Origin: Escherichia coli
Lineage (GTDB): Bacteria; Pseudomonadota; Gammaproteobacteria; Enterobacterales; Enterobacteriaceae
Direction: 5' to 3' (one strand)
Assembly: GCF_003018255.1 (NCBI RefSeq)
Contig: NZ_CP027440.1
Length of the DNA stretch: 64,000 bases
In this document: in pieces, positions 1 through 3,000 of the stretch
How positions within the stretch are numbered: the first letter of the stretch is position 1
How the letters are laid out: each line of letters begins with the position of its first letter
Program-made: the position numbers

Positions 1-3000
1 ATCAGTGTGATGGCCACGGCGCTGAACAGTAATGTCAGAGGAGGCAGTATGCCGCAATTAACTGCAACGGAAGCCGCCGTGCAGGAGAACCAGCGAGTGA
101 TGGGGATCCTGACATGCCAGGAAGCGAAAGGACGTGAACAGCTTGCCACGATGCTGGCAGGACAACAGGGCATGAGCATTGAACAGGCCCGGGCGATTCT
201 GGCCGCGGCAGCACCACAGCAGCCGGTGGCATCCACGCAGAGTGAAGCCGATCGCATTATGGCGTGTGAAGAAGCGAACGGTCGTGAACAACTGGCGGCA
301 ACGCTGGCGGCGATGCCGGAGATGACGGTGGAAAAAGCCCGCCCGATCCTGGCTGCTTCACCGCAGGCGGATGCAGGCCCCTCACTTCGTGATCAGATTA
401 TGGCTCTGAGTGAGGCGAAAGGGGCTGAGGCGCTGGCTGAAAAACTGGCGGCGTTTCCCGGAATGACTGTGGAGTCTGCCCGAGACATGCTGGCCTCATC
501 GTCGGATAAAGCAGAACCGGTCTCTGCATCCACAACCGCCCTGTTTGAACGGTTCATGGCGAACCATTCACCGGCAGCGGTGCAGGGTGGCGTGTCACAG
601 GCGTCAGCAGACGGTGATGCGGACGTGAAAATGCTCATGGCCATGCCATGAAGTCAGTGCTGACCATCAATACGAGGTTTTAACAATATGGTGACGAAAA
701 CCATCACTGAACAGCGTGCGGAAGTACGTATTTTTGCCGGTAATGATCCGGCTCACACTGCTACAGGCAGCAGCGGGATTTCTTCTGCAACACCGGCTCT
801 GACGCCCCTGATGCTGGATGAAGCCAGCGGGAAACTGGTGGTCTGGGACGGACAGAAAGCCGGTAGTGCGGTTGGCATACTGGTACTGCCGCTTGAAGGC
901 ACAGAGACGGTGCTGACCTATTACAAGTCGGGGACCTTTGCGACGGAGGCAATCCACTGGCCTGAACGTGTGGATGAACACAAAAAGGCCAACGCCTTTG
1001 TCGGCACAGCCCTGAGTCACGCGGCGCTGCCGTAACACGTTATCAGGCCGCCGCGTTGGCCTGACTGATTTCTGAATGAAAGGAACTGATTTATGGGATT
1101 GTTTACGACCCGCCAGTTACTCGGTTATACCGAACAAAAAGTGAAATTTCGTGCGCTGTTTCTGGAACTGTTTTTCCGCCGTACGGTGAATTTCCACACC
1201 GAAGAGGTGATGCTGGACAAAATTACCGGAAAAACGCCGGTGGCAGCCTATGTATCCCCGGTTGTTGAAGGAAAAGTGCTGCGTCATCGTGGTGGTGAAA
1301 CCCGCGTGTTACGTCCGGGCTACGTCAAGCCGAAACACGAATTTAATTACCAGCAGGCGGTGGAGCGCCTTCCAGGTGAAGATCCGGCGCAGCTGAACGA
1401 CCCGGCCTACCGTCGTCTGCGTATCATCACCGATAACCTCAAACAGGAAGAGCATGCCATTGTCCAGGTGGAAGAAATGCAGGCGGTGAATGCCGTGCTG
1501 TATGGCAAATACACCATGGAAGGGGAGCAGTTTGATACTGTCGAGGTGGATTTCGGGCGCTCTGAAGGAAATAACATTGAGCAGGCTGATGGTAAAAAAT
1601 GGTCTGAGCAGGACCGTGATACGTTTGATCCGACGCATGATATTGACCTCTACTGCGATCAGGCCAGCGGTCTTGTGAATATCGCCATTATGGACGGTAC
1701 GGTCTGGCGTCTGCTGAATGGCTTTAAGCTGTTCCGCGAAAAACTGGATACCCGTCGCGGCTCAAATTCACAACTCGAAACGGCAGTGAAAGACCTGGGA
1801 GCGGTGGTGTCTTTCAAAGGGTATTACGGCGATCTGGCTATTGTGGTGGCGAAAACGTCTTATGTGGCAGAGGACGGTACCGAAAAACGTTATCTGCCAG
1901 AGGGCACGCTGGTCCTGGGAAATACGTCAGCAGAGGGGATCCGTTGTTACGGTGCCATTCAGGATGCACAGGCGTTGTCCGAAGGTGTGGTGGCTTCTTC
2001 CCGTTACCCGAAACACTGGCTGACCGTGGGCGATCCGGCCCGTGAATTCACCATGACGCAGTCTGCACCGCTGATGGTGCTGCCGGAACCGGATGAGTTT
2101 GTGGTGGTACAGGTGAAATAATCCGGGAGCGGGGGCGAAATGCCCCCGTGTCTTTTTTCACAGGGGGCTGAGATGGCAACAAAAGAAGAAAATCTGAATC
2201 GTCTTCGTCAACTGGCTGGTCTGCTGGGGCGCGAGGCGGATATGTCGGGGAGTGCTGCGGATATTGCTCAGCGTGTGTCTGAGTGGGAAGAGGAGCTTGC
2301 TGCTTCCCGGGAGGACATTATGCACTCTGATGAGAGCGGGTCTGACCAAAATTACACAGACGATGGTGAGCCGTTGAACAACACGGATGCTCCGGATGAT
2401 GTTAAAGCCGTCCGTGTGCGCAAGTGCCTGCATGTGATGGGGTATTGCCCGGAGACAGGCCGTCCTGTTGAGCTTACGTTCCGGGGGATGCGTGTTCTGG
2501 TGCCATCATCACTGGCAATGGCCATGATACAGCACGGAACGGCTGAGTATGCGTGATTTTCAGAATGCCTTTGATGCCGCCCTTGCGGGGGTGGACAGCA
2601 CGATTGTTGAAGTGATGGGGATCCGTGCGCAGTTCACCTCCGGAGCACAGCGTGGCGGTGAAGTTCTGGGGGTTTTTGACGATCCGGAGTCGCTGGGTTT
2701 TGCCGGTGGCGGGGTCCGTATTGAAGGAAGCAGCCCGTCATTATTTGTGCGGACGGATACGGTCCGTGCCGTGCGGCGTGGTGACACGCTGACCATTAAC
2801 GGCGGGATGTTCTGGGTGGATCGTGTTTCTCCGGATGACGGGGGCAGCTGTTATCTCTGGCTCAACCGTGGGCAACCACCCGCTGTTAACCGGCGACGAT
2901 AAACGCAGGGTGAAATTATGGCGATAAAAGGGCTTGATCAGGCGATTGACAATCTGAGCCGGGTTCGTAAAAACGCCATTCCGGCGGCTTCAGCAATGAC

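Follow-up and report, generated by a model that had tools for sequence, protein, structure and literature searches.

A 64,000-nucleotide stretch of Escherichia coli DNA (contig NZ_CP027440.1; hereafter the window) opens within a phage head gene that appears to be a phage-21-type allele of the nested head protease/scaffold gene, called C/Nu3 in lambda. Its scaffold-coding part carries three tandem copies of a unit that occurs once in lambda, and this triplication corresponds to the 'Tri boxes' annotated in phage 21. We put the probability of this reading at about 0.85, including its proposal that the units would be additive interaction modules of the scaffold. The unit is a conserved and duplicable scaffold module, present in one to four copies in otherwise similar head modules.

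Three homologous units in the left-hand gene

The original prediction was that a motif found once in the lambda-type C/Nu3 gene on the right of the window is present three times in tandem in the corresponding gene on the left. To define the unit, we used a hidden Markov model (HMM) of 44 positions, made from 22 units of diverse homologs, and scanned it over the six frames of the 64-kb window. The model matched exactly four times, once on the right and three times on the left (60–70 bits, i-Evalue 1e-20 to 1e-23). Unit 1 (QENQRVMGILTCQEAKGREQLATMLAGQQGMSIEQARAILAAAAPQ) occupies positions 82–219 (64.1 bits), unit 2 (SEADRIMACEEANGREQLAATLAAMPEMTVEKARPILAASPQA) positions 241–369 (70.0 bits) and unit 3 (SLRDQIMALSEAKGAEALAEKLAAFPGMTVESARDMLASSSD) positions 382–510 (60.6 bits), all on the plus strand. 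The single right-hand unit (57388–57522, plus strand, 64.1 bits) lies in a lambda-type C gene (56320–57639) whose product has a Peptidase_S49 domain and 439 residues, as does lambda C.

Amino acid identity between pairs of the left-hand units was 22/38, 17/36 and 23/37 (47–62%). Their BLOSUM62 local alignment scores of 77–101 compare with 22–23 ± 4.5 for composition-preserving shuffles (z 12.6–17.5), and none of 2000 shuffles scored as high. Each of the three also matched the lambda unit (z 12.7–21.8), with 27 of 45 residues identical in the case of unit 1, and columns A15, G17, E19, A22, L25 and A36 were invariant in the 22 units from diverse proteins. The shuffle scores and the matches to the lambda unit show true homology between the repeats, as opposed to a by-product of Ala-rich composition, and the reservation attached to the original prediction, that the units might be too diverged to be homologous, was therefore ruled out. 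The three-to-one arrangement was borne out by both the HMM and the shuffle statistics, and the three peptide strings quoted for the left-hand protein, as well as the single right-hand copy, were all found in the translated window. The predicted span of 94–490 lies inside the array, which in full extends over 82–510.

At the DNA level the units are 58–68% identical, and Tandem Repeats Finder (positions 1–1000, minimum score 30) reported 0 arrays because the units are too diverged at this level. A DNA array generated by slippage, of the variable-number tandem repeat type, is ruled out by these two observations. The last unit is followed by a single-copy C-terminal scaffold tail (…ALFERFMANH…KMLMAMP; 511–648, plus strand), which comes after the last unit in all homologs whatever their copy number, and whose FxRFM-like and LLxxxP-like motifs are seen again in E. 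coli and Salmonella relatives.

A nested protease/scaffold gene

Frame 1 is stop-free over positions 1–651, with the stop codon at 649–651. This segment (plus strand) is the 3' end, 216 codons and the stop, of a gene for an S49 head-maturation protease/scaffold that corresponds to phage 21 gene 5 and lambda C and whose 5' part lies beyond the left window edge. The fragment matched PHROG 53 (head maturation protease) with an E value of 9e-76. In E. coli 00-3076, a gene for a 501-residue 'S49 family peptidase' has its last 651 nucleotides 100% identical to the fragment and is flanked by a portal gene and a decoration gene. The full-length protein of that strain has a Peptidase_S49 domain at residues 146–293 (E 3e-35), a part that in our sequence falls beyond the window edge. 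With the portal gene taken from 00-3076, the order portal, protease/scaffold, decoration and major capsid protein E is the lambda gene order. The perfect match to 00-3076, the portal/decoration context and the Peptidase_S49 domain together place the triplication in the scaffold part of a C/Nu3-type gene. Judged by sequence, positions 1–651 are the C-terminal, scaffold part of a head protease/scaffold gene of this type, and the earlier assignment of the left-hand protein to C/Nu3 was confirmed for its scaffold (Nu3-like) part.

Within this gene, an open reading frame (ORF) of 200 codons (49–651, plus strand) is in frame and co-terminal with the protease; it is the counterpart of gene 6 in phage 21 and of Nu3 in lambda. 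Its ATG at position 49 is located 4 nucleotides past a Shine-Dalgarno sequence read from the DNA (GAGGAGG, 38–44, plus strand). In the records M81255 and OL657228, the ribosome-binding site of gene 6 is annotated at the homologous nucleotides. The same ATG corresponds to the annotated start of phage 21 gene 6, and the start Met aligns with that of lambda Nu3 (GGSM vs GGRM). The 200-residue scaffold is probably expressed from this codon. The scaffold gene of OL657228 also carries annotated 'CII binding sites' (TTGYNNNNNNTTGY), homologous to window positions 54–67 and 288–301 (minus strand). We attribute them to chance, as the window contains 10 such matches and 14.1 are expected.

The phage 21 Tri boxes

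The triplication was already known. In the GenBank record M81255 ('Bacteriophage 21 head gene operon'), three segments of gene 6 are annotated as repeat_region and called 'Tri1 box', 'Tri box' and 'Tri3 box'. The accompanying note reads 'function unknown; putative', and the boxes have been in GenBank since the early 1990s. They map to window positions 116–219, 256–366 and 397–510, and are enclosed by the HMM-defined units 1, 2 and 3, respectively. The source of the record is presumably Smith & Feiss 1993, Gene 126:1-7; the evidence used here is the GenBank annotation itself. The scaffold is not treated in the announcement of the phage 21 genome.

Positions 1–651 align gap-free with phage 21 genes 5/6 over their entire length, at an identity of 92.9% in nucleotides and 92% in amino acids. 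There are 36 differing codons, of which unit 3 has 22 (13 synonymous and 9 non-synonymous), whereas units 1 and 2 together account for 4, two of them non-synonymous. The divergence clusters at positions 382–516, and unit 3 reads …ALSEAKGAEALAEKLAAFPGMTVESARDMLASSSDKA in the window and …ALDEAKGAEAQAEQLAACPGMTVESARAVLAAGSGKA in phage 21. This concentration of differing codons marks unit 3 as a recombinational mosaic patch acquired from another allele. The exact window allele (≥99% identity) was found in only 8 of 5,426 complete E. coli genomes.

Distribution of three-unit and one-unit forms

We surveyed these 5,426 genomes with two probes, one of 111 nucleotides over the second half of unit 2, which requires an intact middle unit, and one for the 3' end of lambda-type Nu3. 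The three-unit form was present in 1,811 genomes (2,850 places) and the lambda-type one-unit form in 3,221 (4,552 places). Roughly two fifths of the C/Nu3 head-module family in E. coli are thus of the three-unit form. Isolated phages include 20 records with the triple form (phage 21, 4A7, ev017, D2, 1W, 3W and the PhiR series among them) and about 90 with one unit (such as lambda, 434, N15, phi80 and the HK phages). Three units are also present in Salmonella Gifsy-1, at 54.5% identity.

On a wider scale, a search of 1.84 billion representatives at 50% identity with the unit profile retrieved 1,219 proteins (E<=1e-3). Among the best-scoring 150 of these, a ranking that favours multi-copy proteins, one unit was found in 138, two in 9 (some of them fragments) and three in 3. 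The unit is usually located ~49 residues from the C-terminus of an S49 peptidase of 400–550 residues or in a short stand-alone scaffold ORF. The view that an internally repeated scaffold is unusual therefore holds family-wide only, in that 138 of the 150 proteins have one unit. In close relatives (the 1,811 genomes, the ~20 phages and Gifsy-1) repeats proved to be common, the very outcome that the original prediction had named as arguing against it.

Several database 'proteins' that contain the unit are chimeric (P0111, P0119, P0124, P0313 and P0316) and can mislead alignments. They combine a portal N-terminus with a C-terminal C, a tape-measure domain with S49, S49 with tail protein L, or S49 with a tail-fibre-like sequence, and are probably assembly joins or products of recombination between co-resident prophages.

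Copy-number evolution of the array

In a neighbour-joining tree of units from E. coli and Salmonella homologs, the first units group together and with the lambda-type single units, with which they also share a 3-residue insertion (VMG in unit 1 of the window); the second units form a group of their own, as do the third. This position-wise grouping shows that the triplication is older than the split between 21-like and Gifsy-like forms, and it is an old repeat at the protein level.

Further observations show that the array is still evolving. P0022, which represents an E. coli lineage, carries four units with 80–88% identity among units 2–4, a recent expansion. In P0153, a distant protein with two units, identity is 68% between its own units compared with 58–63% to other proteins, and P0120 is similar. 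Units of such distant two-unit forms resemble each other at least as much as they do units elsewhere, or else resemble single-copy units of their own lineage, and these lineages duplicated the unit independently.

Alleles that share more than 80% identity with the window protein also include length variants, which are rare in complete genomes. A 482-residue allele has ~2.5 units, as a result of a 57-nucleotide in-frame deletion in unit 2 between CTGGCGGC direct repeats (window 292–357). A 451/452-residue allele has two units following a 150-nucleotide in-frame deletion, with the crossover at equivalent points of units 1 and 2 (window 200–350). A 551-residue allele has four units through a 150-nucleotide in-frame duplication, in a draft assembly with N at the junction. 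The 482 junction occurs in at least 56 complete genomes and one 451 junction in at least one (both lower bounds), and the exact 482-residue protein is widespread in a larger assembly collection, where it is listed in 3,592 blocks.

Predicted structure of the module

An AlphaFold2 (AF2) model of the scaffold was generated from a 97-sequence alignment. It had a mean predicted local distance difference test score (pLDDT) of 72.5, with 87–89 for unit 1, and a predicted template modelling score (pTM) of 0.31, a low value that is as expected for independent modules on flexible linkers. Helices were predicted at scaffold residues 6–21, 30–37 and 44–53 in unit 1, at 66–71, 80–88 and 94–103 in unit 2, and at 113–118, 127–134 and 141–152 in unit 3; two further helices in the tail (160–173 and 190–196) had low confidence. 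Every unit has the same predicted layout, in which the invariant EAKGRE-like motif forms the turn between the first helix and the second (REQLAxxLA), and a PGMT loop leads from the second to the third (VExARxILAA). The ~45-residue unit is thus predicted to be a small three-helix module on short flexible linkers.

Sequence searches of PDB with the whole scaffold and with the unit profile gave only chance matches (Lac repressor, designed repeat proteins and haemoglobin), and Foldseek with the AF2 model against PDB found no relative (best E 3.6). Pfam has no family for the repeat unit, and the matches there were non-significant (E ~0.7). In a library of predicted viral structures, the sole real matches were further phage S49 peptidases carrying this unit, one of them a Salmonella phage prohead protease (root-mean-square deviation 1.4 Å over 57 columns).

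Proposed role of the modules

The long 501-residue product is an S49 serine protease, and the internal start would yield the 200-residue scaffold with a common C-terminus. Both products contain the conserved ~45-residue modules, located in the long one between the protease domain and the single-copy tail. We propose that the modules would be independent and additive interaction units of the scaffold, each folding alone. By analogy with lambda Nu3, they might take part in scaffold self-association and/or in contacts with the capsid protein or the portal, and they would bring the protease, to which they are covalently joined, into the procapsid. Copy number might alter the valency or reach of the scaffold, but not capsid geometry. 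The interactions listed for lambda are Nu3-Nu3, Nu3-C, Nu3-B (portal) and Nu3-E (capsid) (PMC3224144).

Several points weigh against this proposal. Its mechanistic part, including the binding of modules to partners, is argued by analogy. Confidence of the AF2 model is moderate for units 2 and 3 (pLDDT 64–78). The title of Medina et al. 2011 describes lambda gpNu3 as largely intrinsically disordered, and the modules may fold only on binding. Some prophages with variant copy numbers may be defective. A profile in which the unit was the best-conserved part of the protein was discarded, because its sequences had been picked by similarity to the unit and its reference, P0111, is a portal/C chimera.

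A more far-reaching and quite tentative idea, which we consider possible but on the whole doubtful, is that the module is a binding unit complete in itself, duplicated independently in several lineages and still reshuffled by unequal crossing-over in E. coli prophages, and that its copy number is an evolvable dial of valency for procapsid assembly. The lineages concerned would be the enterobacterial 21/Gifsy group (three units), the E. coli four-unit lineage, and the distant two-unit P0153 and P0120. If this were true, extra copies would alter assembly kinetics, protease loading or fidelity and leave capsid geometry unchanged.

Among the alternatives to additive interaction units, the one that survives best is that the modules are mainly spacers or protease-recognition/cleavage cassettes for scaffold removal, and that extra copies are neutral length variation. 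It is consistent with the variable copy number of close alleles, with the loss of half of unit 2 in natural variants and with the presence in lambda of an unrelated low-complexity linker of similar length instead of extra units; in addition, the lambda scaffold is degraded by the co-encoded protease (PMC3224144). However, the module is strongly conserved even in very distant S49-scaffold proteins, the three units are kept with position-specific identity, and the sequence of units 1 and 2 has changed little relative to phage 21 (the 2 non-synonymous differences given above). This conservation and the few non-synonymous changes favour a sequence-specific function over that of a mere spacer, and we regard this alternative as unlikely.

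The original prediction also suggested that the triplication might reflect altered capsid assembly, that is, a size, triangulation number or pathway other than that of lambda. No sign of this was seen. Complete genomes of triple-unit phages (42.9–54.4 kb) and single-unit phages (42.0–51.1 kb) are of like size, which argues for the same packaging capacity. The capsid protein is of the same family and length as lambda E (342 vs 341 aligned residues) and 62% identical to the lambda-type E of the window, it is accompanied by a decoration protein of lambda D type, and near-identical alleles have 2, ~2.5, 3 or 4 units, so that unit number shows no tight coupling to the other parts of the head module. 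Furthermore, phage 21 heads are lambda-like and lambda/21 hybrid phages are viable. These observations outweigh the difference in scaffold length (200 residues vs 131 in lambda) and in layout (three modules and a short N-terminal segment vs one module and a linker of ~45–48 residues), even though scaffolds are able to influence capsid size in other phages, and make altered assembly very unlikely.

Two further explanations are refuted. A recent tandem duplication, in the form of a strain-specific event or an assembly artefact, might be suspected from the activity of unequal crossing-over in the array (the 150-nucleotide deletion and duplication variants) and from the one four-unit draft sequence with N bases at its junctions, but it is contradicted by the 58–68% DNA identity between units, by the identical three-unit layout in phage 21 records and 1,811 complete genomes, and by the orthology of E. 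coli and Salmonella units by position. The remaining one, that the repeats are a by-product of an Ala/Glu/Gln-rich, low-complexity and disordered region, draws on the Ala-rich sequence, the lack of a Pfam domain or of a DNA repeat by Tandem Repeats Finder, and the disorder of lambda Nu3 reported in the cited title, but fails against the shuffles (0/2000 reaching the observed scores, z 12–18), the six columns invariant over 22 units from diverse proteins, the retrieval of 1,219 proteins by a 44-position profile and a predicted helical pattern that is alike in every unit.

As a discovery, the triplication has little weight, because it is a known feature of one of the commonest E. coli prophage head modules. 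What is added here is a profile for an uncatalogued scaffold module, present in more than 1,200 representative proteins and without a Pfam family or solved structure, which is normally single-copy yet has been multiplied independently in several lineages. The natural alleles with 2, ~2.5, 3 and 4 units offer ready material for studying a binding role of this conserved part of lambda-type scaffolds.

Neighbouring genes and prophages

The scaffold ORF is followed by a gene for a head decoration protein of the lambda D/phage 21 Shp type (688–1035, plus strand, 115 residues; Pfam HDPD, E 2e-23; shp in M81255) and one for a major capsid protein of the lambda E/phage 21 gp7 type (1093–2121, plus strand, 342 residues; Pfam Phage_cap_E, E 1e-66). 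The latter is identical to the lambda-type E encoded at 58010–59062 at 210 of 341 positions (62%). In the 57-nucleotide gap between the decoration and capsid genes, a terminator-like G+C-rich hairpin is followed by a T-rich run (TCAGGCCGCCGCGTTGGCCTGA; 1043–1064, plus strand). Over positions 1–1200, 6 terminator-like sites were observed and 1.5 were expected.

Positions 1–17900 and 31000–64000 are parts of two lambdoid prophages, separated by ~13 kb of chromosome with potB, potA, pepT, roxA, phoQ, phoP, purB, hflD, mnmA, nudJ, rluE and icd. The left prophage, with the phage-21-type head genes, ends beside potB. The right one, with the lambda-type head genes, begins with an integrase (31056–32198, minus strand) just past icd. 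The right-hand C gene has a match in isolate 07-4299, in which potB/potC is free of a prophage. Over the left ~14 kb of the window, strain 00-3076 is colinear and near-identical, and in that strain a Hok/Gef-family toxin gene is annotated at the place of window 14570–14710 (plus strand), between the tail-tip J and tail-fibre genes of the left prophage. Between roxA and phoQ, 00-3076 has an insertion of ~15.4 kb (L004 22860-38258; window ~22860–22880) that is missing from the window. It encodes an integrase, a RepA-type helicase, an HK97-type capsid protein, a prohead protease, a portal and a terminase, and looks like a small prophage or a phage-satellite-like island.

Comparison with known systems

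Nested genes of the herpesvirus UL26/UL26.5 type have a similar logic, in which a protease and a scaffold share a C-terminus by means of an internal in-frame start and the protease is delivered into the procapsid. The protease fold and sequence are unrelated, and the repeated module is absent, so the likeness would be one of analogy.

In P22 and other phage scaffolds, small helical modules serve as coat-binding elements (PMC11565965). In P22 gp8, the helix-turn-helix at the C-terminus is such a small helical module in a scaffold, and a functional analogy is possible. The P22 domain, however, is single-copy, has two helices and is at the extreme C-terminus, whereas the modules described here are internal and have three predicted helices; the last of them ends 46 residues before the C-terminus, away from the P22-type terminal position. 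No similarity to the gp8 C-terminal domain was found by the PDB sequence search, by the unit profile or by Foldseek on the AF2 model.

Closer relatives are the Gifsy-1 'prohead protease; lambda gpC homolog' and related Salmonella S49 peptidases, which have three units in the same order with position-wise best matches, but are 54–65% identical overall and have a longer C-terminal extension after the LLMSIP motif.

Lambda gpC/gpNu3 has the same nested gene arrangement, a homologous protease domain and internal start, a copy of the module with a related tail behind it, and D and E as adjacent genes. It differs in having one module, preceded by a low-complexity linker of ~45–48 residues, in products of 439 and 131 residues, whereas the window type has three modules, joined by linkers of 4–7 residues and with almost no N-terminal linker, in products of 501 and 200 residues. 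The closest known system is phage 21 genes 5/6, which shares with the window the internal ribosome-binding site and start, the three boxes at equal coordinates and the flanking shp and gene 7.

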